A stretch of DNA of 64,000 nucleotides, taken from an uncultured Pseudomonadota bacterium (lineage in GTDB: Bacteria; Pseudomonadota; Gammaproteobacteria; Steroidobacterales; Steroidobacteraceae). Shown here piece by piece: positions 2,249-33,571 of the stretch. How positions within the stretch are numbered: position 1 is the first letter of the stretch; each line of letters begins with the position of its first letter. The position numbers and the translations under genes are program-made. The stretch is taken from assembly GCA_903839465.1 (NCBI GenBank), contig CAIMCI010000366.1, positions 15,514-79,513 of the forward strand, written 5' to 3'. Under the pieces are notes generated by a model, which was given only the letters and a program-made list of their open reading frames with translations, was not told the origin of the DNA and did not search any database.

Positions 2249-2258
2249 GCCCGGGATG

Positions 2259-2266
2259 ATGGCGCG
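2259..2266 (-). promoter_or_regulatory. CGCGCCAT box, 10 nt upstream of ATG 2248
   Basis: Coding strand reads TAGCGCGCCATCATCCCGGGCATG. The box starts right after the polymerase TAG stop. No SD in the spacer. Confidence 0.55.
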
Positions 2267-4729
2267 CTAGCCCATGCCCGGGAGCTGCGACTGACCTGCC
2301 GGCTTCTTGCGTCCCGCCCCTCGCTTAGGGCGGGCTAGCACCTGCTCGCTAAACAGCGTGCCCGTCATGCTCTTGGCCGTCTGCTTGCGCGGCCTGGTCT
2401 TGCCAATCTCCCGCCAGCCCTGGTGCGGGAAGCACGCCTCGAGCACGCGCTCTGTCGCCGGGTAGACCATGCTCTCCCAAAGGTGGTGCCGGTCGACGTC
2501 GTCGTTGTAGTCCTCGGCGGGTGCGACCTTCTGAGGACTCACACTCCCGTCCGTCACGTAGTACTCAACCTTGCTCCCCTCGCCTACGTCACGACCTCGC
2601 TTGGCTAGCACCTTGGCCACCTCGACGTGCGCCGGCTGCTGCATCTCGGTGCCGTCCTTCTTCAGCCGGACCTTGTAGGCGCGGATGTTCTGCGTGAGCG
2701 TCTTCGACGTGCGCACATCCTCGATCGCGAGCGGCCCCTCGAGCACCTCGCCCCGGCGCCGGAGGACTATCTCCCGGCACGCCTCCGCCCCCTCGAGCTT
2801 GAGCAGCGCACCGATCACCTCGGCCTGCATCTCCCGAGCGATACGCACCGTGTCGCCGCGCTTGTACTCGAGCCCCTTGATCTCCGGCTTGCTGTCGGCC
2901 GTGGCGCGTGTGCCCTTGTAATGGGCAAACACGGCTGCGTACCTCTTCTTGCTCACCATCGCCAGGACGCTGAACTCCTTCTCGTAGGCGAGGCTGATCT
3001 CGTTACGCACGCAGCCAAGCTCGGCAAGCACCCGCGGGAACAGGTCCTTGTTGCACCACTCGGCGAACTCCCGGAACTGGCTCTCTGTGCACCCCGTGAC
3101 GAAGCTCGAGTCGGTGTCGCAGTAAAAGGCGCACCAGCCCTTCCGCTCCGCCTCCTTGATGACCAGCTTGATGAGCCAGACGCCAGCCTGCGTCACGCTC
3201 TCGGCCACGTCGCGCACGAAAAAGCGGGACAACGGAGAGCCAACCACCCCGTAGAACGTGTTGGCAACAATCTTGAAGCCCGTCGCCTGCCGGTCCGCCT
3301 CCTTCCACTCCTTGGTACCCGGCGGCAGGCTGGCCTTGAGCTTGTTCCACTTGGCGCGTAGCTCCCGAATGCGCGTCACCGCCTTCGGCAGGAAGCCCTC
3401 CGGCTCCGCCCTAAACGCCCAGCCGAGGTCCGGCACCTCGGAGCACCCAGGCGGGCGAGGCGTGCCCTTGTAGTAGCGCTGATCGAAGTGCATCATCCCG
3501 GCACTCGCCTGCTTACCCACGCGCATCCCCGTCTGCGTCTCGGGCGACAGGTTCCACGTCTGGATAATGCTTGGGTACAGGGCGGCGAAGTCGCACACGT
3601 GTACGTCCCGCACGATGCCGAGCCTTGTTGGCTCCATCACGTAGGCTCCCTCGAACGGAGCAGCCACCGGGATGTGCCACTTGGTCGGGAAGCGGATGCC
3701 GCTGCCACGAGCGAGCTTCAGGAGGAACCCCTCGACGAAGTGCGTGCCGTGGCTGCCGTGCGTGTCGGGGAACGTGTTGCACGCCTCGCACACCGTGCAG
3801 ACCAAGTCGAGGTAGCCAGTCTTCTCCTCGATGCGCCGCAAGAGGTCGGAGTCCTTCAGGTTGTACTTAGGCAGCGCCGGGTCCTTCCGCTCCCATGCCT
3901 CGTAGCTGTGGGCCGAGTCGAACTCGTCCTTGCCCTCGCCGAGCACCTGCTGCGCGATGGCCTCGAGCTTGTAGCTCTGCTTCTCCTCGCCGGACTCGCT
4001 CGCGGTGACGTTCATCCGACGGAAGATCTCCAGGTGGTCGACCCACAGCCAGCCGTCCCACGATGCCTGGATACCGCACTCCGCCGCCCTAGCCTTGAGC
4101 ACCGGCAGGTCGAACCGATCGAGGTTCCACGCCGCCACCTGGTCGAACTGGTCGAGCAGGGCGAGCAGCTCCTCGATGAGCTCGCGCTCGGCATCCAGTG
4201 TCCACTCGCGCAGGACGCGCACTACGCGCACCGTGTTGTCGTCGGACACCACCGCCCAGGAGAGGATCCGCATCTCCTCCTTCTTGCTGAACGGCAGGCG
4301 GCTGTCCGTCTCGAGGTCGAGGTAGCAGCGGCGAGGACGCTGGAACTCCAGCTCGTCGGCATGGTCAGTGAGCCAGCGGCGCACCGGCAGAACGTCGGCC
4401 TCGAACACTTCCTTCACGCCCCACCGCTCCATGTAGCAGTCGCGCGTCCCGTCCGGACGCGGTCGGTCCGGAGTCTCGGTGGCGCGGCGGAGCATCTCCC
4501 GGGAGCGGAAGCTCACCCGGTAGTGGCCGTCCTTCTCATCCCGGATGCCGAGCACGGCGCTGCTCTTGCGCAGCATCGTCACGAGCTCTGGCGTTGCGTC
4601 CTTCTTGCGCATGAACATGCAGTGGTCGGCCCGCTCCCGGCGCTGCACGCGGCGGCCCGTGGCGTCGCGGCTCACCACCACGACGCCCGAGCTGCCGTCC
4701 CAGTACGCGTTGACCGCCTTGATGGTCAT
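2267..4729 (-). CDS. Family B DNA polymerase with 3'-5' exonuclease domain
   Basis: 820 aa. Exo I DLETD, Exo II WNLDRFDLP, Exo III YNLKDSDLL. Pol motif A DFAALYPSII, motif B KIVANTFYGVVG, motif C YCDTDS. Confidence 0.95.
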   Translation of the reverse strand: MTIKAVNAYWDGSSGVVVVSRDATGRRVQRRERADHCMFMRKKDATPELVTMLRKSSAVLGIRDEKDGHYRVSFRSREMLRRATETPDRPRPDGTRDCYMERWGVKEVFEADVLPVRRWLTDHADELEFQRPRRCYLDLETDSRLPFSKKEEMRILSWAVVSDDNTVRVVRVLREWTLDAERELIEELLALLDQFDQVAAWNLDRFDLPVLKARAAECGIQASWDGWLWVDHLEIFRRMNVTASESGEEKQSYKLEAIAQQVLGEGKDEFDSAHSYEAWERKDPALPKYNLKDSDLLRRIEEKTGYLDLVCTVCEACNTFPDTHGSHGTHFVEGFLLKLARGSGIRFPTKWHIPVAAPFEGAYVMEPTRLGIVRDVHVCDFAALYPSIIQTWNLSPETQTGMRVGKQASAGMMHFDQRYYKGTPRPPGCSEVPDLGWAFRAEPEGFLPKAVTRIRELRAKWNKLKASLPPGTKEWKEADRQATGFKIVANTFYGVVGSPLSRFFVRDVAESVTQAGVWLIKLVIKEAERKGWCAFYCDTDSSFVTGCTESQFREFAEWCNKDLFPRVLAELGCVRNEISLAYEKEFSVLAMVSKKRYAAVFAHYKGTRATADSKPEIKGLEYKRGDTVRIAREMQAEVIGALLKLEGAEACREIVLRRRGEVLEGPLAIEDVRTSKTLTQNIRAYKVRLKKDGTEMQQPAHVEVAKVLAKRGRDVGEGSKVEYYVTDGSVSPQKVAPAEDYNDDVDRHHLWESMVYPATERVLEACFPHQGWREIGKTRPRKQTAKSMTGTLFSEQVLARPKRGAGRKKPAGQSQLPGMG

Positions 4730-4791
4730 GGCAAATGCACCACGAGCCGCAAGACCTCGAATCCTGCGGCTCGTCTGTCTGGGGACTTCAT
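4726..4791 (-). CDS. Possible 21-codon upstream ORF translationally coupled to the polymerase (MKSPDRRAAGFEVLRLVVHLP)
   Basis: ATG 4791 lies exactly 10 nt downstream of a CGCGCCAT box. Its TGA (4728..4726) overlaps the polymerase ATG (4729..4727) as ATGA. Too short to judge coding potential. Confidence 0.25.
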   Translation of the reverse strand: MKSPDRRAAGFEVLRLVVHLP

Positions 4792-4801
4792 GCCCCCAAT
4801 G

Positions 4802-4809
4802 ATGGCGCG
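4802..4809 (-). promoter_or_regulatory. CGCGCCAT box, 10 nt upstream of ATG 4791
   Basis: Coding strand reads GGCCGCGCCATCATTGGGGGCATG. Confidence 0.5.
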
Positions 4810-4811
4810 GC

Positions 4812-6191
4812 CTACTTCTTCGATGTCTTCTTGGCCTTCTTCGCCGCCTTGACGGGCTTCGGCTTCTTCGTGGCCTTTGCCTTGGGTGCCGGCTTCTCCT
4901 TGTCGGCCTTGGTCTGCGTGTGCACGGCGGGCTCCTCGGCAGCCGTGCCGCGCGAGCGGTCGACCACCAATACGAGGCCCTTCGCCGTCTGGCCCAGGCG
5001 GTAGCGGACCACCACGCCGTTCACCATGTCCTCGGTACCCACCGGCTCGTCGCCGATGCGCTGCGCACGGACCTTGCTCTTGTCCTGCCCCTTGCCGTGC
5101 GCCCCGCAGAAGAGCGGGATGGTGATGCGGCCGAGCAGGCTGGCCACCGTGACGCGGCCGGCATCCTCCTGCTTCTTGGCGGCAGCTTTGATCGCTTCTC
5201 GCTGTGCGGCCCTCGTCTCTTGTCCTCGCTTACCAGCCTCCCCCATTTTCGCCCTGCTACCACCCAACGATTGTGCAACCGTCTTCGGCGGAACCTTGCC
5301 TTCGAGCTTGTTCTTGACCAGCTGCTGCTTGACGTCCATTGCGATCTGGCTGCTCGTGTAGTCGCCATCCTCTGCCATCTTCTCGATGAGCCGTTGCCGG
5401 TCCTCCTCCGGAATCTTGGTCGCGAGCAAAAGCTTCGTGACGCCGAACTTCGCTACCTGGTCCCGCGTGAACGCCAGCGCCACGTCCATGAAGTTGCGTG
5501 CGTGCTGCCCGCTGATACCGAGCTCCACGTCCGAGAACTTGTCGAATGACTTGTAGCGCGCCTTACATTCGTCATCCACACGAACCTTGTAGAGCTGGTT
5601 CACGTAGATTTCGTAAACGGCCTTGCCAATATCCCAGTAGCAGATCACCGCAGCTGTCTTCAGGTCGTGGACCCGCTTGACCTTCTCATTCAGCTCGGCG
5701 ATCTTCTCCTTGAAATTCGCCAGCTCAGCTGGCTTAGCCGGCACGATGGCCTTGCTCCCATTCGACCCCGCCTCAGGTTCAACTTTCTGCTCGGGCTCCT
5801 TTGAGTCGTCCTCTTCCCCGACTCCGCAGTACGGACACTCGGGTAATTCGGTGGCGCTGATACCGTGGCAGTTGTCGCAGTCGGCGAGGTCGTCCTCATC
5901 GTGCATCTTCAATTGGTAGTCGAGCGCCGTCTCGACCAGCTGCGCGGGCGTCGCCCCCGTCGGCACCACCAGGCTCCACTTGACGAGCCAACGCTTCACA
6001 ACCTCGGGCTTCACCTTACCCATCTTGACGGCTGCAAGTGCCTCCTTGAGCGCCGGCTTGCCCTCCTCCATGTCGGCCGGCAAGAGTTCCGTCTGCTCCG
6101 CCGCCGTCGGCTTGCCCCTCGCCTTCCTCGGTTCCTTCGCGGTCGTCGGGTTCTCTTTGGTAGTCATGTTCATTCGGCTCCTGCCTTTCAC
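4812..6191 (-). CDS. Putative DNA-binding protein (zinc ribbon, DUF3102-like HTH segment, histone-H1-like Lys-rich tail)
   Basis: 459-aa ORF with CDNC-x12-CPYC. The segment CYWDIGKAVYEI...ELGISGQHARNFMDVALAF resembles DUF3102-type HTH proteins. The C-terminus is KPAPKAKATKKPKPVKAAKKAKKTSKK. The start is uncertain (GTG 6191, or ATG 6173/6167 after AGGAG). Confidence 0.65.
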   Translation of the reverse strand: MKGRSRMNMTTKENPTTAKEPRKARGKPTAAEQTELLPADMEEGKPALKEALAAVKMGKVKPEVVKRWLVKWSLVVPTGATPAQLVETALDYQLKMHDEDDLADCDNCHGISATELPECPYCGVGEEDDSKEPEQKVEPEAGSNGSKAIVPAKPAELANFKEKIAELNEKVKRVHDLKTAAVICYWDIGKAVYEIYVNQLYKVRVDDECKARYKSFDKFSDVELGISGQHARNFMDVALAFTRDQVAKFGVTKLLLATKIPEEDRQRLIEKMAEDGDYTSSQIAMDVKQQLVKNKLEGKVPPKTVAQSLGGSRAKMGEAGKRGQETRAAQREAIKAAAKKQEDAGRVTVASLLGRITIPLFCGAHGKGQDKSKVRAQRIGDEPVGTEDMVNGVVVRYRLGQTAKGLVLVVDRSRGTAAEEPAVHTQTKADKEKPAPKAKATKKPKPVKAAKKAKKTSKK

Positions 6192-6203
6192 GGTTTCCTA
6201 TCA

Positions 6204-6211
6204 ATGGCGCG
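6204..6211 (-). promoter_or_regulatory. CGCGCCAT box, 12 nt upstream of GTG 6191
   Basis: Coding strand reads CCGCGCCATTGATAGGAAACCGTGAAAGGCAGGAGCCGAATG. Here a short leader with AGGAG follows the box. Confidence 0.45.
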
Positions 6212-6217: not shown

Positions 6218-6252
6218 GGTGAAAAACTTAAAATCATTTTAAGCTTTTCACC
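6218..6252. promoter_or_regulatory. AT-rich 35-bp near-perfect palindrome (17-nt arms, 1 mismatch)
   Basis: GGTGAAAAACTTAAAAT-C-ATTTTAAGCTTTTCACC. It lies between the sigma gene stop (6267) and the CGCGCCAT box at 6204..6211. An extra TTCACC follows at 6253..6258. Confidence 0.5.
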
Positions 6253-6266: not shown

Positions 6267-6905
6267 TCAGCCTGCCTCACTAGTCCGCCGCCCTAGTCCG
6301 CGCAGAACCTGCTCCGCCTCGGCAATGAGGCCCGTCAGCTCCCGCCTCCTCATCGTCGGCGGCAGCCGAAGCTCGAGTCGATCGGCAGCAGTACGGGCGT
6401 CACCCACCTCGAGCAGGGCCAGCGCGGCCCTCATCATCGGCAGCGACATCTCGCCGATCATCTGCACGAGCTCCGTCTCCTCGCCGGCCGTGCCCGCCTC
6501 CTCGGTCCACCGGCGGTGCGCCTCCTCGTCGAAGGCCCACTGCCCGCCGTCCCCCTCCTCGAGCTCGCGCAGGCAGCAGGCGGCAACGTCGTGGCGGCTC
6601 TGCGCCCGGTCGCTCCGCCGTAGCGCACCCCGCTGCTCGTTGATCCACCGCTTGGTGTCCGTGACTGCGGACCAGAAGACGAACGCCTTGACCGGCACGC
6701 CACGGGTTGGGTCGTAGAAGCCGACGGCCCGCCACGCGGCGAGCAGCAGCTGCTGCACCAGATCCTCATCCTCCACGGCCAGCGGCACCGGCCAGCGGCG
6801 GTGCAGCCACCGGGCCACCTTCTGCCACTCGGCCCGGGTGGCTCGCTCGAACTCGGCGAACGTCACGCGCCCCGCGTAGAGCGCTTCAATGTGCGGCTTC
6901 AGCAA
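6267..6905 (-). CDS. Phage-encoded sigma-70 family (ECF-like) sigma factor
   Basis: 212 aa. A region-2-like segment reads EDEDLVQQLLLAAWRAVGFYDPTRGVPVKAFVFWSAVTDTKRWINEQ, and there is a C-terminal helical region-4-like segment. TTG start 8 nt after GAGAGGAG. Confidence 0.7.
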   Translation of the reverse strand: MLKPHIEALYAGRVTFAEFERATRAEWQKVARWLHRRWPVPLAVEDEDLVQQLLLAAWRAVGFYDPTRGVPVKAFVFWSAVTDTKRWINEQRGALRRSDRAQSRHDVAACCLRELEEGDGGQWAFDEEAHRRWTEEAGTAGEETELVQMIGEMSLPMMRAALALLEVGDARTAADRLELRLPPTMRRRELTGLIAEAEQVLRGLGRRTSEAG

Positions 6906-6920: not shown

Positions 6921-6959
6921 CGAAAAGAAAGGGGGAGGCCCGGCGTCCCAGGCCTCCCC
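6921..6959 (-). terminator. Intrinsic terminator-like hairpin between the DUF932-like gene and the sigma gene
   Basis: Minus strand reads GGGGAGGCC-TGGGACGCCG-GGCCTCCCC (9-bp perfect stem) followed by CTTTCTTTTCG. It starts 20 nt after the stop at 6980. Confidence 0.6.
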
Positions 6960-8247: not shown

Positions 8248-8571
8248 TCAGGCCCGGCCGCGGAGAACAGGGCCGCTCGGATAGGCCCGGCGGTACCCCT
8301 TAGGGAAGCCGGTGAACGGGCCGCCCAGCTCCCGCACCACCCGGTTCACCATCGCATTGAAGGCCGGGTCTTCGCGGCGCAGGACATGCAGCGCCTTCAC
8401 GCTGATGCCGAGCTGCCGGCAAGCCTCGGCGAACCTGCCCCCCGCGTTACGCAGCGCCTGCTCGATTTGAGTCTTCGCGCCGGGCTGGTCGAACCGGAGA
8501 TCGATCAACAGCTGCCGCCCGCTCTTGGTGGTGACGGGCAGCGCGAGGGGCTTGGGCTTACGAGTGCTCAT
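8248..8571 (-). CDS. Fis-type HTH DNA-binding protein
   Basis: Trimmed to the ATG at 8571, which lies 10 nt after a CGCGCCAT box. IEQALRNAGGRFAEACRQLGISVKALHVLRRE matches the Fis-family HTH pattern. Confidence 0.6.
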   Translation of the reverse strand: MSTRKPKPLALPVTTKSGRQLLIDLRFDQPGAKTQIEQALRNAGGRFAEACRQLGISVKALHVLRREDPAFNAMVNRVVRELGGPFTGFPKGYRRAYPSGPVLRGRA

Positions 8572-8581
8572 GCCCAGGATG

Positions 8582-8589
8582 ATGGCGCG
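8582..8589 (-). promoter_or_regulatory. CGCGCCAT box, 10 nt upstream of ATG 8571
   Basis: Coding strand reads GGCGCGCGCCATCATCCTGGGCATG. Confidence 0.55.
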
Positions 8590-8674: not shown

Positions 8675-8833
8675 TCACTCGCCCGGAGCGCCGCAGAGCT
8701 CGAAGATGTAGTCGGCCAGCCCTTCGAGGTCGGTAAGCTTGCCGGCGGCCTCACTGGTCTGGAGCTCCTCGAGGATCTCCTCCTTGCTCATGCCGGCACA
8801 CAGGTCCTTCAGGTTCTCGAGTACTTCGTCCAT
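8675..8833 (-). CDS. Small acidic hypothetical protein (52 aa)
   Basis: My translation is MDEVLENLKDLCAGMSKEEILEELQTSEAAGKLTDLEGLADYIFELCGAPGE. High GC3. The ATG lies 3 nt after the upstream stop. Below the ORF-track length cutoff. Confidence 0.45.
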   Translation of the reverse strand: MDEVLENLKDLCAGMSKEEILEELQTSEAAGKLTDLEGLADYIFELCGAPGE

Positions 8834-8836
8834 GGG

Positions 8837-9112
8837 TCAATCCCTATCACACGGCGCGGCCAATAACTCGAGCGCCCGCTCCACCTCGGGCGGCTTGGCG
8901 AGCTTGGCCGCACGAGCCACGTCGACCAACGGCCAGAGATCGTTCCAGGTGACCAGCTTGTAGACGTAGCGGCGGCAGATGCCGAGGTCGGCGGCGATGC
9001 GCACTAGGTTGCCGTGCTGCCGCTCGATGGTCTGCTTCAGTTCCTCGAGTGCGGCCTCCAGGTCGCGTTCCCGGAGCTCACCGAGGCCGGTCGAGTGGCG
9101 GGTCACCGCCAA
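8837..9112 (-). CDS. Fis-type HTH DNA-binding protein
   Basis: 91 aa. LEELKQTIERQHGNLVRIAADLGICRRYVYKLV matches the Fis-like HTH pattern. Confidence 0.6.
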   Translation of the reverse strand: MAVTRHSTGLGELRERDLEAALEELKQTIERQHGNLVRIAADLGICRRYVYKLVTWNDLWPLVDVARAAKLAKPPEVERALELLAAPCDRD

Positions 9113-9663: not shown

Positions 9664-10679
9664 TTTGATTCCTTTCCCCACCCGTCGAACCCTTCAATCA
9701 CACGGCGGTTGTACATGTCCAACCTCCTTCCCGCCGTGACTCTGCACAACATCTCGTAAAATTCCCCCGGCTTCTCGCTGTGCTTGCCACGAGATGCCTC
9801 GAAGCACGTGAAAAACTCCTTCGTGTCGATGAACTTCGGGGATCCACGGCGTGCATACAACGAAAACTCACAGTTGAATTGCGGTAGCCCAACCACCTGG
9901 AAACCACCCGGCTTGTGCCAAACGAACGTACAGCAATAGGCGAGGTTCCATCGCATGAGCAGTCGAAACGCCATCGGCAAGAACGCGTGTGTGGTCCATA
10001 AGAAAACGTGGCAGTCAGGCCCAGCAGGCAACTCAATCTTCCCCAGCTCTTCCTCCGTCATGACTGAGTAGTCCAATTCCCGTGCCTGATTCGGACGACT
10101 TTCCCGTTCGACTTTTTGCATCGGCCACGGCGGGTCAACCACGATCACCTGGTAAAGCCCAATCGGCACGGATGCAGCCAGTTGCTCGACTTGTTCGCGT
10201 TTCTGCGCGGTCGTCCTCTTCTTGATGTCGGCGATCATCAGCCGCTCCGTCGCCACCTTGCCGACCTTAGCTAGCTCGTCCACCTTCGCCAGCGCCTCCT
10301 CCATGGTCAGGCTCTCGAAGATCAGCCGAGCCTCCGACAGCCGCTGGCGCGGGACAATAGAGCTGACCCGCCCCGGGACAGCTCTATCGCCTTTCGGTCT
10401 ACCGCGGCCTGCAATAGGGCCGCCCGCCTTCCCGCCCTTGGCTCCCCGCTCCTGCGCCGTCTGCGCCGGGCTCGTCTCGCCCATCTTGTGGAACGACGCG
10501 ATTCGCACCTTGGCGATCCTAACCTGCTGCGGTTGACCAAGCTTGGTCGCCTTCGCCCACGCCGCCATCGCCACCGAGCTGGCATGAATTCTCGATATCT
10601 CTTTGAGATCGGTCGTCCTCGACAGGATTCTCTCAGTTTCCGAAAGCTGAACCAACTGTACTTCTTCATTCTTCGCCAT
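9660..10679 (-). CDS. MT-A70 family DNA N6-adenine methyltransferase
   Basis: Trimmed to MAKNEEV (ATG 10679), which follows GGAGGATCGAG. Catalytic DPPW motif (VIVVDPPWPMQ) and MT-A70-like C-terminal half. Confidence 0.85.
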   Translation of the reverse strand: MAKNEEVQLVQLSETERILSRTTDLKEISRIHASSVAMAAWAKATKLGQPQQVRIAKVRIASFHKMGETSPAQTAQERGAKGGKAGGPIAGRGRPKGDRAVPGRVSSIVPRQRLSEARLIFESLTMEEALAKVDELAKVGKVATERLMIADIKKRTTAQKREQVEQLAASVPIGLYQVIVVDPPWPMQKVERESRPNQARELDYSVMTEEELGKIELPAGPDCHVFLWTTHAFLPMAFRLLMRWNLAYCCTFVWHKPGGFQVVGLPQFNCEFSLYARRGSPKFIDTKEFFTCFEASRGKHSEKPGEFYEMLCRVTAGRRLDMYNRRVIEGFDGWGKESK

Positions 10680-10692
10680 CTCGATCCTCCAA

Positions 10693-11202
10693 TCATGGCG
10701 CGGGGAACCGGTACCACTGCGCCTTCCATTCACCCTCCGGCAGATCGTCCCCTGACATCCACCGAGCGCCGTCATTCTTGGCCTGCTTGTAGATCCACCG
10801 CCTCGAGCCATCGAACCCCGCGAAGCAGATCGCAGGCTCCCGCACGATCATCCGCTCCCCTTCCGGCACGCGAGCCAGCATCTCTCCGGCATCGAACGTC
10901 GCCATGAACATCTCGCGTGCGAACTCGATTCGTCCGCCCTCCAAGTCCGTCCCTAAGCAACTCTGATTCCACTTGCAATTCCGAGCCCTCACCATGCGCG
11001 GCATCCAGTTCTCGTCTTGCAAGTATCGATCGAACTCGAACATCTCGTCCTGCTTCAGCTGCTTGAATGCACGCAGGCAGCGCATCAGGTAGTCGGCGAG
11101 CACGAACGCCTGAGTCCCACGCGCCACCCGTGCCCGCTTCAACGCGAACTCGAGGATGCTCCGCAGCTCCCCGTCACATGCATCTTCAGTCCAGTCATTC
11201 AC
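10693..11202 (-). CDS. Hypothetical protein
   Basis: 169 aa from GTG 11202, which forms a GTGA overlap with the primase stop and lies 8 nt after GAAGGAG. GC is lower than the surroundings. Confidence 0.55.
   Translation of the reverse strand: MNDWTEDACDGELRSILEFALKRARVARGTQAFVLADYLMRCLRAFKQLKQDEMFEFDRYLQDENWMPRMVRARNCKWNQSCLGTDLEGGRIEFAREMFMATFDAGEMLARVPEGERMIVREPAICFAGFDGSRRWIYKQAKNDGARWMSGDDLPEGEWKAQWYRFPAP
10695..10702 (-). promoter_or_regulatory. CGCGCCAT box, 15 nt upstream of ATG 10679
   Basis: Coding strand reads CCCGCGCCATGATTGGAGGATCGAGATG. This is the only copy whose spacer contains a clear SD. The box overlaps the stop of the upstream gene. Confidence 0.45.
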
Positions 11203-12138: not shown

Positions 12139-12492
12139 TCAGCGCTTGACGGGCAGAACCCTGCCGGTGATGGTCATATCCTTGGCGATGTTCAGCTCAA
12201 GCCGCGCATACTCGTCCCACTCGAAGTATTGCTTCCGCTCCTCGTCCGTCAGCCCGAGCTCCTGAATCACCCGCCTGAGCTCGTCAGGTTCCTTGATCTG
12301 CACTTCGATCGGTGCCCGCTTCATTTCGTACTTCGCAAGCTCAGCGAGACACTCCCCACAGTTCGCAGCCTTCTTCAGACTAGGAGGGACCCACAAGTTC
12401 CCAGGAGGCCAAGCGGCAGGCACCTCCGCCGTGAATCCACACAGCGGAAACCCCCGATCGACTATGTGCACCATTGCGATTCGCTCGTTCAT
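12139..12492 (-). CDS. Hypothetical protein
   Basis: 117-aa ORF. ATG lies 10 nt after a CGCGCCAT box. Confidence 0.6.
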   Translation of the reverse strand: MNERIAMVHIVDRGFPLCGFTAEVPAAWPPGNLWVPPSLKKAANCGECLAELAKYEMKRAPIEVQIKEPDELRRVIQELGLTDEERKQYFEWDEYARLELNIAKDMTITGRVLPVKR

Positions 12493-12502
12493 ACCCCGGA
12501 TG

Positions 12503-12510
12503 ATGGCGCG
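12503..12510 (-). promoter_or_regulatory. CGCGCCAT box, 10 nt upstream of ATG 12492
   Basis: Coding strand reads TAGCGCGCCATCATCCGGGGTATG. The box abuts the TAG stop of the upstream gene, the same context as at 2259. Confidence 0.55.
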
Positions 12511-14886: not shown

Positions 14887-15248
14887 CGGCTGCTCCTCGA
14901 CTTGACACGGAAGCCAGTGGGCGGCGGGCGGTTCGGGTCAGGCATGTCGGGAAACGGATTCTTCACCACACTTTCTTTGAAACCCTCGAGCAGCTTGCGT
15001 GCGTCATGGCAGGTCGGCGCCTCCGCGTGCTCGACCAGCTCAGTCAGGTGCTCACGAATCGCTTCGTCGATCAGAACCCCACGCACTCCCTTGAACATCT
15101 CGATGAAGGACTGCACCGCCTCCACCGGGTCCTCGCCCTCCTCGACCAGGACCGTGACCGACATGATGGGCGTCTCGACCGAGTTGTAGCGGACGAGTGC
15201 CAGCTTGTGTACCGTAGCGGTAACCGTGACCTGCGTGACTCTTGCCAT
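14883..15248 (-). CDS. Hypothetical protein
   Basis: 121-aa ORF. ATG lies 10 nt after a CGCGCCAT box. Confidence 0.6.
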   Translation of the reverse strand: MARVTQVTVTATVHKLALVRYNSVETPIMSVTVLVEEGEDPVEAVQSFIEMFKGVRGVLIDEAIREHLTELVEHAEAPTCHDARKLLEGFKESVVKNPFPDMPDPNRPPPTGFRVKSRSSR

Positions 15249-15258
15249 GCCCGGGATG

Positions 15259-15266
15259 ATGGCGCG
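15259..15266 (-). promoter_or_regulatory. CGCGCCAT box, 10 nt upstream of ATG 15248
   Basis: Coding strand reads CCCCGCGCCATCATCCCGGGCATG. Confidence 0.55.
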
Positions 15267-17544: not shown

Positions 17545-18053
17545 CGGCCGCTCCTTCCGGACAGCAATGCGAGTGGCTTGCCCGTGGCGTAGGCTTCGGA
17601 GATCTGCGGCTCGATCAACTCGCCTACCGTTCGCCCGTCGGGCAGCATCATGTCGGCGAGGAACTCCCGCTCGACCGACGAACCGCCTTCGGCAACGAGC
17701 TCGAGCTTAGCCTTGACCACCAAGAGCAAGCGCCGCCACACCTCGCGGGCCCCCTGCTCGACGCGGCCGGCAACCCACCTCTGGCGCTCAGACACCGCCC
17801 ATCCCTGCCACCCTTTGGGGGTGTCGGCGTTCGCCGGCTTGTACGGGTCCGGTAACTTCTCATGTTTGTTGGCGAGCTGCATTCGGTAGAACCGCTCGCC
17901 AAACCGAAACGTCACGCTCGCCGTCTCGGTCAGGTAGTCCGAAACAACTGCGGTCCCGGTTGCCCCGTGCCTGGTGAGCAGCGTCTCGATCTCGGCCTTG
18001 CTCTTGGCCACTTCGACCGTCGTGCCTTCGGCGAACCGCCTGGTCTTGTTCAT
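17541..18053 (-). CDS. Hypothetical protein, first gene of the leftward early operon
   Basis: 170-aa ORF. ATG 18053 lies 10 nt after a CGCGCCAT box that directly abuts a palindrome copy. Confidence 0.65.
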   Translation of the reverse strand: MNKTRRFAEGTTVEVAKSKAEIETLLTRHGATGTAVVSDYLTETASVTFRFGERFYRMQLANKHEKLPDPYKPANADTPKGWQGWAVSERQRWVAGRVEQGAREVWRRLLLVVKAKLELVAEGGSSVEREFLADMMLPDGRTVGELIEPQISEAYATGKPLALLSGRSGR

Positions 18054-18063
18054 GCCCTATAGG

Positions 18064-18071
18064 ATGGCGCG
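18064..18071 (-). promoter_or_regulatory. CGCGCCAT box, 10 nt upstream of ATG 18053
   Basis: Coding strand reads ACGGAACCCCGGGGTTCCGT-G-CGCGCCATCCTATAGGGCATG. Confidence 0.55.
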
Positions 18072-18072: not shown

Positions 18073-18092
18073 ACGGAACCCCGGGGTTCCGT
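18073..18092. promoter_or_regulatory. 20-bp perfect palindrome ACGGAACCCCGGGGTTCCGT (copy 2)
   Basis: Exact copy, 1 nt from the CGCGCCAT box of the early operon. Confidence 0.55.
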
Positions 18093-18140
18093 TGGAGGGG
18101 GGGTCCCCTCGCGCGCGGCGCGCGTACGCGCGTCACTGGT

Positions 18141-18190: not shown

Positions 18191-18289
18191 ACGCGCGCGT
18201 AATAGAACCACACGCGTGCGCACGCGCGGAGCGCGTGCATGCCGGGCCAAGCCCGGCGGCACGGGGATAGTTCGATCTCCAGAACGGAA

Positions 18290-18297
18290 CGCGCCAT
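18290..18297 (+). promoter_or_regulatory. CGCGCCAT box, 11 nt upstream of ATG 18309
   Basis: Reads ACGGAACGCGCCATCATCCCTAGGCATG. A palindrome half-site, ACGGAAC, overlaps the first base of the box. Confidence 0.45.
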
Positions 18298-18308
18298 CAT
18301 CCCTAGGC

Positions 18309-18485
18309 ATGAGGCTCCGATCCCAAGTCACCCGACGCCAAGCCATCCCACCCGAACCATCGGGGGAGCCACCGCTGCCGTTGAAAGCACCGGAGGACGG
18401 TGCAGCCCGTACCCGCAGATACGAAGCCGAGCTGGCAGAAGGGTTCAGGATAGCCATGGAGAAGGACGATCGATGCCACTCGTAA
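18309..18485 (+). CDS. Possible small protein (58 aa)
   Basis: Internal ATG of ORF 18216..18485, placed 11 nt after a CGCGCCAT box. Sequence MRLRSQVTRRQAIPPEPSGE... has low complexity. Confidence 0.3.
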   Translation: MRLRSQVTRRQAIPPEPSGEPPLPLKAPEDGAARTRRYEAELAEGFRIAMEKDDRCHS

Positions 18486-19598: not shown

Positions 19599-20413
19599 CC
19601 GAAGAGTGCCGGGTCGGCCTTCAGCGGCCAGCTCAGCATGTCCTCGAGATCCCGCTCGAGGATGTCGGCATCCCGTTCCCTGATCATGGCGGCTTGCAGG
19701 TCCTCATCGGCCATGGCCGCAACCGCCATCACGTTGCCGGCCTCGTAGTCGTTCAGCACCGGCAGGGAGTTCCAGTCGACCTGGTCAGCGGCGGCCTTCA
19801 CTCGGGGCATGCAGCCGACCAGCAGCGCCGAGTACTTGGCCTCCATCGCCGTGTAGTAGCCGCCGAGCTTGAGCGCATGCGCATAGGCAGCCGGACTGCC
19901 CGACCAGAGCGCCTCGAACGCGGCAGGGAACCTCCGCTCGAGCAGGCTCACGTGGTCGGTGACGCCGGCGAGCAGGTCTGAGAACGCGCGGAAGCAGCAC
20001 CCCGAGTGCTTGGGACTGATGCGCACGCTGGCCATGGCCCGGCCGTTCATCGTGTACTGGCCAACGACCTGCACGAGCGGGCTGCCGGCGCAGAGCTGCT
20101 CGGCGTAGGCGAGGGTGAGCTCCTCGCCACAGGTGAAGAACGTCCAGTCGTAGGCGCCTCCGGACACCGCCTTGGCGTTGCCCACGTTGTAGTCGTGGCA
20201 CTTCTCGCCCCAAGCCACCTCACCTGCCCACTGCGCAGTCATCAGCTCGACGGCCGAGCGCGGCGGTGCCGCCCCACGCAGGTGTAGCCATGCCCGGTAG
20301 AAGGCCGGGAGTATCTGCTCTAGGGCCACCGGGGTCAGCTGGTCGGGAAACTCGTGGGTGGCGGCCAGTGCAAGTGGGGTGTCCGGTGCGGTGGGGATGT
20401 TGTCGTTCGACAT
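19595..20413 (-). CDS. Putative endolysin, N-acetylglucosaminidase (FlgJ/LytD-like) type
   Basis: 272 aa. AQWAGEVAWGEKCHDYNVGNAKA ... CFRAFSDLLAGVTDHVSLL ... ALKLGGYYTAMEAKY follows the glucosaminidase-domain pattern (WG..N.GN.K, FRAF, GY.T...Y). Confidence 0.55.
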   Translation of the reverse strand: MSNDNIPTAPDTPLALAATHEFPDQLTPVALEQILPAFYRAWLHLRGAAPPRSAVELMTAQWAGEVAWGEKCHDYNVGNAKAVSGGAYDWTFFTCGEELTLAYAEQLCAGSPLVQVVGQYTMNGRAMASVRISPKHSGCCFRAFSDLLAGVTDHVSLLERRFPAAFEALWSGSPAAYAHALKLGGYYTAMEAKYSALLVGCMPRVKAAADQVDWNSLPVLNDYEAGNVMAVAAMADEDLQAAMIRERDADILERDLEDMLSWPLKADPALFG

Positions 20414-20430
20414 GGGCTCGAGGGTAGCGC

Positions 20431-20450
20431 ACGGAACCCCGGGGTTCCGT
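20431..20450. promoter_or_regulatory. 20-bp perfect palindrome (copy 3) at a divergent junction
   Basis: Lies 17 nt from ATG 20413 (minus gene) and 22 nt from ATG 20473 (plus gene). Confidence 0.55.
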
Positions 20451-20454
20451 GGCC

Positions 20455-20462
20455 CGCGCCAT
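20455..20462 (+). promoter_or_regulatory. CGCGCCAT box, 10 nt upstream of ATG 20473
   Basis: Reads GGCCCGCGCCATCATCCGCTCCATG. Confidence 0.55.
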
Positions 20463-20472
20463 CATCCGCTCC

Positions 20473-21252
20473 ATGCGATTCCACGTGATCACCTGCTGGC
20501 GCAAGAACCTCGGCGACACCTACCTGCTGCGCACCCTCGCGCAGCTGCGCCGTCAAGTGGCGGCGCTGAACGAAGAGGGGGTCGACAACCACTGCATCTA
20601 CGTGCGCGTCGATGGAGACTCGTCCGCGGTGAAGCGCATCCGGGATGACGTCGAGCAGCAGGTCAACCTCTGCCCTCTACCCGTCCACACGCAAGTGGTC
20701 CCGCTCGGCCAGTGCGGCGGCCACACGAGAGCCTGGAGAACGCTGCTCGACCAGGCGAGCCGCCACCTCGGCTCCGCCGTCTTCCTCGAGGATGACCTAC
20801 TGCTCGACTCACGTGCCGCACGGGAGATGGTCGCCCTGGTCCCGGGTTCGAGCTGCGGGTTTCTGACCTTCTACGACGGCAACCGACTACCCGAGAAACA
20901 CCCCGACGGTGTCGTCGTCCAGCCGATACGCGGAGAGAACGGGCACGGAGTTTGGGGCCTGATCGCCATCAAGATGCCGTGCGAGGTGGTGCGCTACTTG
21001 GTGGATGCCGACTGGGACAGTGACGATGTGAAGACCTTCCCAGGCTACCTGCTACACCTCGCGAACTGGGGCAACGCGCTCAACGCAGCCGACGTATTCA
21101 CTTCGTCGCTGCTGAGCCGTAGCCCGTGGCCGAACTACTCCATCCACGTGCCGAGCCTGGTGCAGCACGTGGGAGCTAGCAGCGAGTGCTTCGGGCCCGG
21201 CGTCGGTCTGCGTGGCAGGACCGCGCGTAACTGGCGACCCTCCGCGCCATGA
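20473..21252 (+). CDS. GT-A fold glycosyltransferase-like protein
   Basis: Starts at MRFHVITCWRKN. The N-terminal beta-strand/helix pattern is typical of GT-A enzymes, and the acidic VFLEDDLLLD sits at the DXD position. Confidence 0.55.
   Translation: MRFHVITCWRKNLGDTYLLRTLAQLRRQVAALNEEGVDNHCIYVRVDGDSSAVKRIRDDVEQQVNLCPLPVHTQVVPLGQCGGHTRAWRTLLDQASRHLGSAVFLEDDLLLDSRAAREMVALVPGSSCGFLTFYDGNRLPEKHPDGVVVQPIRGENGHGVWGLIAIKMPCEVVRYLVDADWDSDDVKTFPGYLLHLANWGNALNAADVFTSSLLSRSPWPNYSIHVPSLVQHVGASSECFGPGVGLRGRTARNWRPSAP
21243..21250 (+). promoter_or_regulatory. CGCGCCAT box, 9 nt upstream of ATG 21260
   Basis: Reads CCTCCGCGCCATGACTGGGGCATG. It overlaps the glycosyltransferase stop. Confidence 0.5.
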
Positions 21253-21259
21253 CTGGGGC

Positions 21260-21964
21260 ATGAGCTCCACATCGCGTCTCGTCGACGACCCAACCCACAA
21301 ACCCCTGGACCAGTACTGGACGCCGGATGCGTTGGCTAGCGCCAGCATCGCTCGGCTCCACATCCACCGCGGGATGGGTTGGTGGAGCAAGTGCTACGCG
21401 CTCGAGCCGCACTGCGGGCAAGGTGCGTGGTTGCGAGCAATGGACAAGTGCGTGACCGCAATCGACGTGTGCGACATTGACGCTCAGTGGACCGCCGTCG
21501 CACACAATTCAAGCAGCCACATTGGCCGGAAGATCCTGGGCGACTTTCTCACGGTCGACTTCGAGCCGACCAACGCAAAGGGAACTGGGTGGGGTGGTTA
21601 CGACCTCATCTGCGGCAACCCACCGTTCTCGCGCATCGCGCGGGACGCGCACGGCAAGCCGCTACTCACGAAGAAGGGCAAGGAGAAGTTCGAGACCGTG
21701 GCCCATCTGCACGTCGAACGGGCACTTCAGTTGCTGAACCCAAGCGGCTTGCTGGCGTTCGTTCTGCGTCTAGGGTTGCTCGGGTCGAACGATCGAGCCG
21801 CGTTCTGGGACCGCTACCCGCCGAGCTGCGTCTACGTGCTGCGCCCGCGGCCGTCATTCACGGGTGGGGGTAGTGACTCGGCCGACTACGGGTTGTTCGT
21901 CTGGGACAAACGCAAAGAAGCCCAGGGCAACGTGACCGCCCTGGGCTTCCTCGACTGGGCTTAG
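21260..21964 (+). CDS. N6-adenine DNA methyltransferase (NPPF type)
   Basis: DQYWTPDALA, motif I LEPHCGQGAW, motif IV LICGNPPFSR. Confidence 0.85.
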   Translation: MSSTSRLVDDPTHKPLDQYWTPDALASASIARLHIHRGMGWWSKCYALEPHCGQGAWLRAMDKCVTAIDVCDIDAQWTAVAHNSSSHIGRKILGDFLTVDFEPTNAKGTGWGGYDLICGNPPFSRIARDAHGKPLLTKKGKEKFETVAHLHVERALQLLNPSGLLAFVLRLGLLGSNDRAAFWDRYPPSCVYVLRPRPSFTGGGSDSADYGLFVWDKRKEAQGNVTALGFLDWA

Positions 21965-24846: not shown

Positions 24847-24952
24847 GTCTTCCTTCTTTCTCGCCGGATAGTTTCGAGAGCCGCCGGCTGCCGGCTCACC
24901 CTTCAAACCTAGCCCTAATGGCCGCCCTGGGCTAGTTCTTTTGTGGCCCCCC

Positions 24953-24972
24953 ACGGAACCCCGGGGTTCCGT
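24953..24972. promoter_or_regulatory. 20-bp perfect palindrome (copy 4) at a divergent junction
   Basis: Lies between the RadC operon (leftward) and ATG 25002 (rightward). Confidence 0.55.
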
Positions 24973-24983: not shown

Positions 24984-24991
24984 CGCGCCAT
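24984..24991 (+). promoter_or_regulatory. CGCGCCAT box, 10 nt upstream of ATG 25002
   Basis: Reads GGCCCGCGCCATCCTCCCCCCTATG. Confidence 0.5.
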
Positions 24992-25001
24992 CCTCCCCCC
25001 T

Positions 25002-25421
25002 ATGCGCACCCCCCGCCGCCCGGCCCCTAGCTCCAAACCCGAACCGGACCCTGACGGCCGGGGCCTAAAAAGGCTACCCACCGGAACTGTTCGGCCCCTA
25101 GAAAGCGTTTCTGGCCCCCTCCCCGGGGGGTTGCCTAGGCGGGCCCGCCAGCCCCGGTTCACGGGCGTTGGCTGGCCAGAGATCATCGCCGCCCTGGGTA
25201 TCGACGACGACGCCCGGCTAGCGGCCATGGGCCGGTACCGCACCGCCGGCTGGACCCCGGAAGACTTCGCCGGTCAATGGGGCGCCCGCCGGGCCATGGC
25301 CGAGTCACTCACCTACGCCGAAGATCAAATCGAGAAGAAAGTCGACTGCCCGCGGCTGCGTGCTGCCCGCTCCGCTCTACGTGACGTGAGACGACGGCTC
25401 GAGCTCGAGCTCTGGCCCTAG
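25002..25421 (+). CDS. Hypothetical protein (N-terminal third may be non-coding)
   Basis: 139-aa ORF. The first ~50 codons are P/R/G-rich and CTAG-rich with hairpins. The C-terminal part (GWPEIIAALGIDDDARLAAMGRY...) looks coding. Confidence 0.4.
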   Translation: MRTPRRPAPSSKPEPDPDGRGLKRLPTGTVRPLESVSGPLPGGLPRRARQPRFTGVGWPEIIAALGIDDDARLAAMGRYRTAGWTPEDFAGQWGARRAMAESLTYAEDQIEKKVDCPRLRAARSALRDVRRRLELELWP

Positions 25422-27081: not shown

Positions 27082-27106
27082 TCCCCGAGGATAGCGTAGG
27101 CCTGGC

Positions 27107-32250: not shown

Positions 32251-33198
32251 TCAGCTCGGGTAGCCGACGATGGTGACGTGGGCGAAGATCGTCCAGTCGG
32301 TGACGTCGTTCGTGCCGGCGCCGAAGTTGAGTACCACGGTGTGCGTCCTCGATCCTCCGCTGGCCGCGGTGAACTGGCCGGGCCTATACGTGTGCGCCCC
32401 GGCGTCGACGTCGACCAAGGAAGACTCCCCGATCAGCTGCAGGTAGTTGGTGATGTCGGTCTTCTCGAACGTGCTCGAGCGCTTCCAACAGCCGACCCCG
32501 TACCGGGCACCGCCGCCGGGCGTCAGCACGGCATGGACCACCCAGTCGACCAACACGTTCGCCGGGCGGTCGTCGGGCAGGTTGGCGATGCCGAGGTCGA
32601 GCGTGTGGCCCGCGTAGCCGGCGGACGAGGTTTGGAAGCTGAACGGCGGCAGGTCGAACGAAGCGATGACTAGGCCGGCGTCCGCGCCGCTCTCGAGCGT
32701 CGGGGTCGGCGCGAGGATGCCACGCATCCACGTCCAAATTCCAGTGACCACCTTGAGCCAGCGGCGCAGCTCGCGCGCCCACCCAACAGTGTTTCCGCTC
32801 ACGTCGATCGCGTCGGGCGCGTTGTGCTCGGTCGTCTCGAGGTAGCTCGGCATCCGGCGCGGACACGAGGCGGGATCGGTCGCGAGGGTTGCTCCCGCGT
32901 AGAAGGTGATCTCCACCGTGCTTATCACCCCGGCGAGCGAAGCGGCCACGCGCAGGAGGTACGTGCCGTCGTTGTCCGGCGTCACGTCCGTCACCTGCGC
33001 GCTTGGAGCCGAGAGCGTTGCTGCGCTCGGCGCCGTCATCGCGTCGTTCGGCGGGGCGTCGAGCAGCGTCCAGGCATAGGTGTCATAGCCACCCGTTGCC
33101 GTCGCCGTCACGGCCGAAGCCAGGTCCAGGTCCTCACGGGCCTGCCCGGCCGTGCCTGCCGTCTTGCCCGTCTGGTCGAGCGTTATCTGGAGGGTCAT
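32251..33198 (-). CDS. Hypothetical baseplate-module structural protein
   Basis: 315-aa ORF in the baseplate operon. Confidence 0.5.
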   Translation of the reverse strand: MTLQITLDQTGKTAGTAGQAREDLDLASAVTATATGGYDTYAWTLLDAPPNDAMTAPSAATLSAPSAQVTDVTPDNDGTYLLRVAASLAGVISTVEITFYAGATLATDPASCPRRMPSYLETTEHNAPDAIDVSGNTVGWARELRRWLKVVTGIWTWMRGILAPTPTLESGADAGLVIASFDLPPFSFQTSSAGYAGHTLDLGIANLPDDRPANVLVDWVVHAVLTPGGGARYGVGCWKRSSTFEKTDITNYLQLIGESSLVDVDAGAHTYRPGQFTAASGGSRTHTVVLNFGAGTNDVTDWTIFAHVTIVGYPS

Positions 33199-33218
33199 CT
33201 CCCCCGGAGTCTACAGCG

Positions 33219-33515
33219 TCAGCCGAACTCCTCGTCGACGTCCGGGTCGGAGTTCGACACCCGTCCGCCGCCCACCTTGAGCCCACCCCCGAACGGGTTG
33301 GTGAGTGAGCAGCGGATGGAGAGCCAGAAGCTCAGGCTGGGCGGGAAGTCCCATGGCGGGAACTTCGGGATGCGGAAGCTCAAACCGTAGCCGAACGGAG
33401 GGATCGACAAGCCGCACGGCAGCGCACCCACCGGCACCCCCTGGAAGCCGACCTTCAGCCCGATCGTCTGCTGCGCAGCGGGAGATGGGTAGTCAGGCGG
33501 CGGCGGGAAGCCCAT
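33219..33515 (-). CDS. Small Pro/Gly/Phe-rich baseplate-module protein
   Basis: 98-aa ORF. ATG lies 15 nt from a palindrome copy. Confidence 0.45.
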   Translation of the reverse strand: MGFPPPPDYPSPAAQQTIGLKVGFQGVPVGALPCGLSIPPFGYGLSFRIPKFPPWDFPPSLSFWLSIRCSLTNPFGGGLKVGGGRVSNSDPDVDEEFG

Positions 33516-33530
33516 GTCCTGGATAATCCC

Positions 33531-33550
33531 ACGGAACCCCGGGGTTCCGT
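33531..33550. promoter_or_regulatory. 20-bp perfect palindrome (copy 5) at a divergent junction inside the baseplate module
   Basis: Lies 15 nt from ATG 33515 (minus gene) and 21 nt from ATG 33572 (plus gene). Confidence 0.55.
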
Positions 33551-33553
33551 CGC

Positions 33554-33561
33554 CGCGCCAT
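33554..33561 (+). promoter_or_regulatory. CGCGCCAT box, 10 nt upstream of ATG 33572
   Basis: Reads GTCGCCGCGCCATTGATAGGGGCATG. Confidence 0.55.
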
Positions 33562-33571
33562 TGATAGGGGC

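Follow-up and report, generated by a model that had tools for sequence, protein, structure and literature searches.

A start-proximal GC-rich box as a probable promoter core for leaderless or short-leader mRNAs in an uncultivated phage family

Introduction

This study deals with a GC-rich 8-mer, CGCGCCAT (hereafter, the box), that precedes start codons in a 64-kb window of a metagenome-assembled phage contig of 88,189 bp (ENA ERZ1426852). The window is the whole stretch of DNA that was analysed. All coordinates refer to it, and features lie on its minus strand unless stated otherwise. The box can be read as CGCGC followed by CATNNT, a -10-like hexamer made up of the last three bases of the box and the three bases after it. 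The box was first pointed out in a prediction made from the sequence alone (the original prediction), which proposed a phage promoter for leaderless mRNAs. It is probably a promoter core whose mRNAs have no leader or a short one. Several described systems are close to it in one feature or another.

Single-element promoters are the first. The late promoters of phage T4, which depend on gp55, are of this type and consist of TATAAATA. Those read by gp36 of phage phiEco32 are similar: a single 9-bp element (tAATGTAtA), a transcription start 6-8 bp downstream and a sigma factor without region 4 homology (PMC8948821). The system described here resembles both in its divergent phage protein of the sigma-70 family, its one element of about 8-9 bp and the lack of a -35 element. 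It differs from both in four respects: the box is GC-rich, position 1 of the hexamer is C, the inferred transcription start is the start codon itself, and the genes preceded are replication and accessory genes, not late genes. Unlike gp36, the candidate sigma of the box phage also seems, in its structural model, to keep a sigma-4-like domain.

Leaderless promoters of Actinobacteria and Deinococcus-Thermus are the second. In these, a TANNNT -10 element stands a few nt from AUG or GUG; the TAnnnT consensus together with abundant leaderless mRNAs has been documented (PMC4007540, PMC4633059). The likeness lies in a -10-type hexamer 6-7 nt from the start, the lack of a Shine-Dalgarno sequence and the preference for ATG. 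Nine TANNNT sites of the window, described below, fit this type directly. The box does not: it is CATNNT with an invariant CGCGC, is far more conserved than these -10 elements and is specific to one phage family.

Third, the start-associated sequences (SAS) of Cluster K mycobacteriophages are 13 bp long (GGGATAGGAGCCC), contain a Shine-Dalgarno core and lie 3-7 bp from the start; a role in translation has been proposed (PMC3203893). SAS and extended start-associated sequences (ESAS) are like the box in being short asymmetric repeats upstream of starts, in one orientation, enriched for ATG and confined to non-structural genes (PMC3203893). They too are kept across subclusters before unrelated genes, and inverted repeats precede a subset of them (PMC3203893). 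Unlike SAS, the box has no Shine-Dalgarno complementarity, stands 9-11 nt off with the geometry of a -10 element and can be 24 nt upstream in relatives.

Promoters of extracytoplasmic function (ECF) sigma factors (GGAAC, 16-17 nt, CGT) share two features with this system: the profile of the phage sigma is nearest to ECF sigmas, and GGAAC is found upstream of four boxes. They are unlike it in that GGAAC is missing at 9 of 13 boxes, the spacing is variable and the box is not of the CGT type.

No description of the motif was found in the literature, and searches with the motif string matched primers only. The literature search also found no paper that ties a phage sigma factor to leaderless promoters.

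Placement and spacing of the box

Exactly 13 copies of CGCGCCAT were found by an exhaustive search of both strands of the window. In dinucleotide-preserving shuffles (n = 100) the mean was 6.1 and the maximum 12; 0 of 100 reached 13. Each of the 13 is on the coding strand and has a start codon 9-15 nt downstream. The spacing is exactly 10 nt at nine starts (2248, 4791, 8571, 12492, 15248, 18053, 20473, 25002 and 33572) and 9 nt (21260), 11 nt (18309), 12 nt (6191) or 15 nt (10679) at the others. The starts, coordinates and spacings given in the original prediction were thus all right. So was the start-proximal bias on which it relied, which is strong: in the window no copy is found inside a gene or in the wrong orientation, against about six expected by chance (Poisson P about 0.002). 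Positions 9-15 nt 5' of called starts make up about 0.5% of the window, so the placement of 13 of 13 copies within them cannot be due to chance. With motif-blind gene calls, CGCGCCAT is the top-enriched 8-mer in the 30 nt upstream of genes (11 of the 13 copies, P 2e-16). One further copy, the 14th, differs at one base (CGCGCCGT) and stands 17 nt 5' of the ATG at 8833.

A Shine-Dalgarno sequence is absent from 11 of 11 spacers of at most 11 nt. It is found only at the boxes whose upstream ends are at 10702 (GGAGGA, in the spacer) and 6211 (AGGAG, 3' of the box). The 10-nt spacers had been described as free of such sites and GGAGGA as confined to the 15-nt spacer of start 10679; both statements were upheld. 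The claim that no structural gene is preceded by a box also holds for the portal, major capsid and baseplate genes, which were checked. The sequences that flank the copies are mutually unrelated.

Promoter-like features

The hexamer of the 13 window copies is CATCAT (seven copies), CATCCT (two), CATTGA (two), CATGAT (one) or CATGAC (one). Its position 2 (-11) is A in 13 of 13 copies and has the highest information content among the family sites. In 11 of 13 copies the hexamer is 6-8 nt from the ATG: nine of them have 7 nt, one has 6 nt and another 8 nt. In the 11 short-spacer copies, the ATG accordingly stands 7 nt (6-8) past the 11-mer CGCGCCATNNT, and the base before it (-1) is always C or T. 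Information from -45 to -19 is about zero: nothing is conserved there, hence no -35 element. A scan with the sigma-70 consensus found one site against 1.5 expected, which is the chance level. A sigma-54 promoter was rejected on inspection; no GG-N10-GC pattern is present and the distance to the start is wrong.

Genes with a box or a TANNNT site start with ATG in 21 of 21 cases, versus 29 of 59 for other genes (P 1e-5). Leaderless initiation is known to prefer 5'-AUG, and the ATG-only starts fit this preference.

The boxes at 18071, 15266, 12510, 10702, 8858 (the one-mismatch copy), 8589, 6211, 4809 and 2266 precede the first gene of a group, with 1-5 genes behind each box of the replication module. 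Genes internal to these groups mostly have AGGAG-type sites or a 4-nt overlap with the preceding gene. If no gene but the first in a unit can be leaderless, such a restriction of the box to first genes is what one would expect.

Conservation in related phages

The relatives comprise 107 non-redundant loci of family B DNA polymerase (PolB), 1.56 Mb in total, with PolB 35-54% identical. PolB homologues define a large uncultivated phage family with contigs of 60-110 kb and a GC content of 52-71%. Spacing histograms were used for these loci, since k-mer counts were dominated by coding repeats.

The nearest relatives carry CGCGCCATAGTAGGGGCATG, CGCGCCATAGTGGGGTGATG and CGCGCCATATTGGGGTCATG. The core of the family is GCG[C/G]CAT, more often GCGGCAT than GCGCCAT. 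Distances from this core to an ORF-opening ATG (ORF, open reading frame) peak at 9-11 nt on the PolB strand, with 58 sites versus about 12 expected from flanking offsets; the opposite strand has five sites at this distance. With motif-blind gene calls the spacings are bimodal. They number 35 at 9-11 nt and fall to a trough at 14-21 nt; from 22 nt upwards comes a tail in which the spacer often holds a Shine-Dalgarno sequence. About half of the genes of the family have ordinary Shine-Dalgarno sites, which indicates that the hosts use both modes of initiation.

One gene could be followed through four phages. Orthologues of gene 1613-2248 in the loci L121, L122 and L124 were aligned at their N-termini, and a box precedes all four genes. 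Its spacing is 10 nt in the window, 9 nt in L124, 24 nt with GGAGG in L122 and 24 nt with AAAGGTG in L121. These values place the box at a fixed distance from a presumptive start site about 10 nt downstream rather than from the start codon. The box was originally described as locked to the start codon; this is so in the window and not in relatives, where 24-nt spacers occur.

A degenerate DNA scan of IMG/VR with CGCGCCATNNNNNNGGGCATG gave just single, chance-like matches per contig. Some relatives carry abundant coding-strand repeats near PolB (CCCCCAAGG up to 18 times, CGGCTACGG 23 times, CGAAGCCCG 18 times; loci L140/L209, L170/L181/L217 and L146/L210), which are probably repetitive coding sequence.

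The candidate sigma factor

A gene of the sigma-70 family (6267..6905, minus strand, 212 aa, TTG start) gives a Sigma70_r2 match with an E-value of 3.9e-7. Sixty-nine loci are long enough on that side to include the position about 2 kb upstream of PolB, and 57 of them have a sigma gene there. Only the N-terminal 110 residues (region 2) are conserved in the family: 38 of 41 aligned sigmas match Sigma70_r2, and 0 of 41 match Sigma70_r4. The closest PDB matches of the family profile are ECF sigmas and FliA; the profile aligns through sigma-4 of the ECF sigma 9isn_F. An AlphaFold2 model (predicted local distance difference test, pLDDT, 78) has a confident sigma-2, a disordered linker and a four-helix C-terminal domain (pLDDT 77-89). 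Sigma factors take all the top places in a Foldseek search with this model, though the E-values are weak (8.6e-3 or higher). A strong intrinsic terminator, with a 12-bp GC-rich stem and CTTTCTTTTC, lies at 6932..6959 (minus strand), 26 nt upstream of the TTG start.

Provided that the box is a promoter, its reader is, with moderate confidence, host core RNA polymerase carrying this phage sigma. The reader would be encoded by the phage, since a GC-rich motif is kept across phages of 52-71% GC. Pfam and PHROG scans of the proteins of the window, which covers 64 kb of the 88-kb contig, found no domain of a phage RNA polymerase, and no DFDGD-type motif was seen. Nor do the genes within 10 kb of PolB, in this contig or in three relatives, include an RNA polymerase. 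The 1260-aa protein of the window was rejected as a candidate RNA polymerase, since none of its domains matched and its composition is tail-fibre-like. The sigma region is part of a 730-aa gene in L122 (6444-8636) and a separate 211-aa gene in L123 (58-693); this is probably a difference in gene calling or assembly.

A second class of start sites

Nine minus-strand genes without a Shine-Dalgarno sequence (structural, lysis or accessory) have TANNNT, then 6-7 nt, then ATG. TANNNT at 5-8 nt is found at 9 of 50 gene-start ATGs versus 8 of 1369 other ATGs (P 1.6e-11). The class includes the portal, MuF-like, 1260-aa fibre-like and glucosaminidase-like genes and the cNMP-binding moron. The site of the moron, a cNMP-binding/DUF1003 gene, is TATCCTCCGGGGCATG (36054..36069), 7 nt from the ATG. 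It had been taken for a degenerate copy of the box; this assignment is withdrawn, as the site belongs to the TANNNT class. The portal site is TAAAGTCACACGCATG (56286..56301). The others are at 20411-20426, 27079-27093, 41967-41982, 46513-46528, 52893-52907, 53892-53906 and 61911-61926, all on the minus strand.

These sites are likely to be host-type leaderless promoters. They have the standard layout of a leaderless TAnnnT -10 element, and the geometry of the box is therefore that of a -10 element from which transcription begins at the start codon. The split between box and TANNNT by gene class refers to this single window; the late regions of relatives gave just a 4.5-kb fragment. Two further sites look related: GATTAT, 7 nt, ATG (33513-33528) and TAGACT, 9 nt, ATG (33196-33213).

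Divergent gaps and a shared palindrome

Two short gaps between divergent genes combine several elements. The first, of 59 bp (20411..20475), holds TACCCT, 7 nt and ATG on the minus strand, a central palindrome, and a box, 10 nt and ATG on the plus strand. The second, of 56 bp (33513..33574), is built in the same order, with GATTAT in the place of TACCCT. In these gaps, before the plus-strand morons that start at 20473 and 33572, the box is the sole conserved upstream element and thus the sole candidate.

The palindrome, ACGGAACCCCGGGGTTCCGT, is perfect and 20 bp long. Six identical copies are found in the window (15575-15594, 18073-18092, 20431-20450, 24953-24972, 33531-33550 and 53924-53943). 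Four of the six have a box 1-11 nt downstream, and three of the four are in divergent promoter gaps. The other two are within coding sequence, one of them 17 nt upstream of a TANNNT promoter. The centre of the palindrome is at -26 to -40 from the flanking ATGs; with such variable spacing it is not a -35 element. The GGAAC found upstream of four boxes is part of this palindrome, at 14, 16, 17 and 24 nt. A fixed-spacing ECF -35 element was ruled out on this variation of 14-24 nt.

An operator for a phage-specific dimeric regulator is tentatively favoured over a terminator or hairpin as the function of ACGGAACCCCGGGGTTCCGT. No T-tract follows it, though the phage has a classic T-tailed terminator elsewhere, and it is found at divergent promoters and never at convergent gene ends. 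Perfect palindromes of their own (at least 14 bp, three or more copies), often GGAACCCGGGTTCC-like, are found in 21 of the 107 related loci, among them L227, L195, L171, L246, L244, L204, L222, L228, L189, L198, L245 and L215. The palindrome directly abuts a GCGGCAT box in four of them (L228, L189, L198 and L244). These palindromes may reflect co-evolution with a phage-specific regulator.

Individual box sites

The unit CGCGCCATCATCCCGGGCATG (2246..2266) heads a 211-aa gene (1613-2248) and comes directly 3' of the PolB stop codon. At 4726..4809, the unit CGCGCCATCATTGGGGGCATG is followed by a 21-codon upstream ORF (4791-4726; MKSPDRRAAGFEVLRLVVHLP), whose TGA overlaps the PolB ATG at 4729 (ATGA). 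The start at 4791 listed in the original prediction does have a box at 10 nt; its ATG opens this short frame and not PolB. The frame would be leaderless and, lying upstream, would have its translation coupled to that of PolB. PolB of L121 and L122 instead overlaps the gene upstream.

The site CGCGCCATTGATAGGAAACCGTGAAAGGCAGGAGCCGAATGAACATG (6165..6211) has a longer leader: 12 nt to a GTG (6191), then AGGAG and ATG. The gene behind it (4812-6167/6173) is likely to start at the ATG after AGGAG; it has 451 aa in the gene call of the assembly. A 35-bp AT-rich inverted repeat, GGTGAAAAGCTTAAAATGATTTTAAGTTTTTCACC (6218-6252, minus strand), lies between the sigma stop codon and this box. Its AT-richness is unusual for a genome of 66% GC, and it may be a terminator or a binding site.

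The unit CGCGCCATCATCCTGGGCATG (8569..8589) heads a group that opens with the HTH_8 gene (8248-8571); 6980-8098 comes next and the sigma gene after it. The one-mismatch copy, with its 17-nt spacer (CGCGCCGTGTGATAGGGATTGACCCATG, 8831..8858), stands 5' of a 52-aa gene (8675-8833). At 10677..10702, the box with the 15-nt spacer and GGAGGA heads the MT-A70 methylase gene 9660-10679; the upstream gene's TGA stop codon falls inside CATGAT. The unit CGCGCCATCATCCGGGGTATG (12490..12510), directly 3' of a TAG stop codon, heads 12139-12492 and then the primase. A second CGCGCCATCATCCCGGGCATG unit (15246..15266) heads 14883-15248, with the DnaB operon next. The unit CGCGCCATCCTATAGGGCATG (18051..18071) heads 17541-18053 and then the helicase; a palindrome copy is 1 nt upstream.

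Five units are on the plus strand. The one with the 11-nt spacer (18290..18311) heads a 58-aa ORF (18309-18485). CGCGCCATCATCCGCTCCATG (20455..20475) heads the moron 20473-21252. The unit with the 9-nt spacer (21243..21262) heads an Eco57I-like methylase gene (21260-21964), and the upstream TGA lies inside CATGAC. CGCGCCATCCTCCCCCCTATG (24984..25004) heads the moron 25002-25421, and CGCGCCATTGATAGGGGCATG (33554..33574) the moron 33572-34177. A box-like GCGGCCAT is found within GGGCGGCCATTAGGGCTAGGTTTG (24904-24930, minus strand), downstream of the palindrome at 24953, with a 10-nt spacer to the TTG of a doubtful 61-aa ORF; it may be a decayed copy of the box.

Gene content of the window

The window has a GC content of 66% and no tRNA. 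Nearly all genes are on the minus strand, with a few plus-strand genes embedded as morons. According to Pfam and PHROG scans of the window proteins, the replication module occupies positions 1-18 kb: PolB (2267-4729, full length from 4729), the sigma-70-family protein (6267-6905), the Fis-type helix-turn-helix (HTH) protein HTH_8 (8248-8571), MT-A70 methylase (9660-10679), primase (11199-12134), DnaB (12753-14372) and helicase (16060-17544), all on the minus strand. Positions 26-62 kb hold structural genes of the myovirus type: baseplate J and V, major capsid, portal, MuF-like and tail-fibre-like. Between the replication module and the plus-strand genes is a 255-bp divergent gap with an AT-rich patch (18138-18200, tgatcattgatctgatct...agatctgatctga) that contains many GATC sites; it is a candidate origin or early control region. 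The ORF 56722-58125 (minus strand, 467 aa), in a tail-fibre region of lower GC, holds 3-4 tandem 60-bp repeats at 57460-57660 (20-aa units, NAAQLAALTSTNNPSALAVT-like) and was cut in two by a codon-based gene caller.

No cultured close relative was found; the best PolB match by tblastn is 27% identical. A megablast of 20 kb against GenBank phages gave no match, and IMG/VR single-protein scans found no close relative of PolB. The nearest match of the capsid protein is from a Streptomyces phage (30%), and homologues of a 372-aa protein are mostly in actinophages. The moron with cNMP-binding and DUF1003 domains (35214-36056, minus strand) has its best matches in metagenome-assembled genomes of Myxococcota/Polyangiales (40-42% identity), then in Verrucomicrobia and Nevskia; this may be a weak and ambiguous hint to the host.

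Proposed mechanism and points against it

The promoter core for leaderless mRNAs put forward in the original prediction was supported by every computational test that was run, and it is considered probable. The box would be the upstream, double-stranded part of a one-element promoter without a -35 element. Transcription by RNA polymerase would begin on the A of the ATG, or on the base before it, and give a leaderless mRNA, and ribosomes would initiate on its 5'-AUG without a Shine-Dalgarno sequence. A longer spacer, as at 6211, 8858 and 10702 and in several relatives, would let the same promoter make an mRNA with a short leader. Transcription units of 1-5 genes in the replication module, and the plus-strand morons, would each begin at a box. 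The host-type TANNNT class would serve structural, lysis and some accessory genes.

Several observations weigh against this mechanism or against the phage sigma as its reader. Position 1 of the hexamer (-12) is C in 13 of 13 copies, which is non-canonical for a -10 element; position 6 (-7) is T in 10 of 13 and carries about 0.5 bit in the family sites. A sigma-4-like C-terminal domain is modelled for the sigma, yet no -35 motif is visible. The sigma gene is itself in a box-headed unit and directly behind an intrinsic terminator, so that the origin of the first sigma is unexplained: 26 nt leave no room for a promoter, and its expression would need read-through or antitermination. The link between sigma and box among loci is weak and about two-fold (0.69 start-proximal boxes per 10 kb in sigma-positive loci versus 0.32 where sigma was undetected). 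A comparison of sigma sequence with box variant was possible for 11 classifiable loci, too few for covariation, and the classes follow phylogeny. Finally, several boxes come directly after the stop codon of the upstream gene with no terminator between, and read-through transcripts must therefore exist.

Alternative explanations

The box could be a promoter read by a host sigma factor, either the primary one with an unusual extended -10 element or an alternative one, perhaps with a phage factor at CGCGC. In that case the phage sigma would have other targets, such as late promoters. A host reader is unlikely, if the most serious of the alternatives, and it is a case within the promoter reading and not one beside it. 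GC at -14/-13 is common to the box and to five of the nine TANNNT sites, one of which, TGCGC-TACCCT, is near CGCGC-CATCAT. Replication genes are normally on before a phage-made sigma accumulates, and the sigma gene is itself downstream of a box and behind a terminator. Phage sigmas also usually drive middle or late genes, as do SPO1 gp28 and gp33/34 and T4 gp55. Against a host sigma, eight invariant consecutive bases, with C at -12, are atypical of promoter sets of a primary sigma. The motif is moreover kept over 52-71% GC and PolB identities of 35-54%, probably in different hosts, and the sigma gene is its conserved partner.

An element that acts in the RNA is improbable. It would be an endoribonuclease site at which polycistronic transcripts are trimmed to leave a 5'-AUG, or else a signal by which ribosomes initiate or re-initiate without a Shine-Dalgarno sequence. 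Many boxes come right after a stop codon with no terminator, which puts the motif in read-through RNA; the spacers lack a Shine-Dalgarno sequence; and a role in translation is what has been proposed for the closest look-alike, the Cluster K start-associated sequences (PMC3203893). The best argument against it comes from the plus-strand morons in divergent gaps of 56-59 bp, where there is no co-directional upstream RNA. Orthologues with a box at 24 nt have a purine-rich Shine-Dalgarno-type stretch of their own, which does not suit a start-proximal translation signal, and the bimodal spacing (9-11 nt, or at least 22 nt) fits a fixed transcription start. Folding around the boxes gave z-scores of -2.0 to +0.4 and no consistent or conserved structure, and Rfam gave no match at gathering score in the whole window. 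The absence of the motif elsewhere on both strands of the window suggests selection at the DNA level.

Slightly less probable still is an operator for a phage DNA-binding regulator that overlaps ordinary promoters. Perfect conservation over 8 bp does resemble repressor sites such as the stoperators of Cluster A (PMC3203893), and a Fis-type HTH protein is encoded at 8248-8571. The box, however, lacks symmetry and always points the same way as its gene, the register to the start codon is fixed within 1 nt, and no other promoter-like element stands alongside, sigma-70 consensus sites being at chance level. The 20-bp palindrome is the better candidate for an operator.

A module-boundary or recombination sequence, or a duplicated repeat with no role in expression, would agree with the position of the box at gene boundaries and beside morons, but it is very improbable given the single-nucleotide register with the start codon, the constant coding strand, the unrelated flanks of the copies and the retention of the box before one orthologue in four phages and before many unrelated genes in other relatives.

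Significance

The promoter reading brings no new principle: promoters specific to a phage sigma and leaderless promoters are both already known. As a wider and more tentative proposal, which is held at somewhat less than even confidence, this phage family of about 90 kb could have an orthogonal module. A fast-evolving minimal sigma and a GC-rich one-element promoter without a -35 element (GCG[C/G]CAT-NNT), arranged so that transcripts begin on the start codon, would produce private leaderless mRNAs for replication and accessory genes, structural genes would be on host-type TANNNT leaderless promoters, and the palindrome would gate a subset of both.

If the promoter reading is true, a compact pair of sigma and promoter would be available for studying how polymerase is positioned on an AUG. 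Since it would need just 11 bp of promoter sequence, the sigma could also be an orthogonal expression tool in high-GC bacteria. Both the positioning of polymerase on an AUG and the use of Shine-Dalgarno-free initiation by phages have been studied in few phage systems. For the family itself, regulation would be of two classes: the box for replication genes and morons, TANNNT for structural genes. The box would also give a rule for placing gene starts and transcription units in this large group of phages, which come from soil, sediment and sludge and of which none has been cultured.

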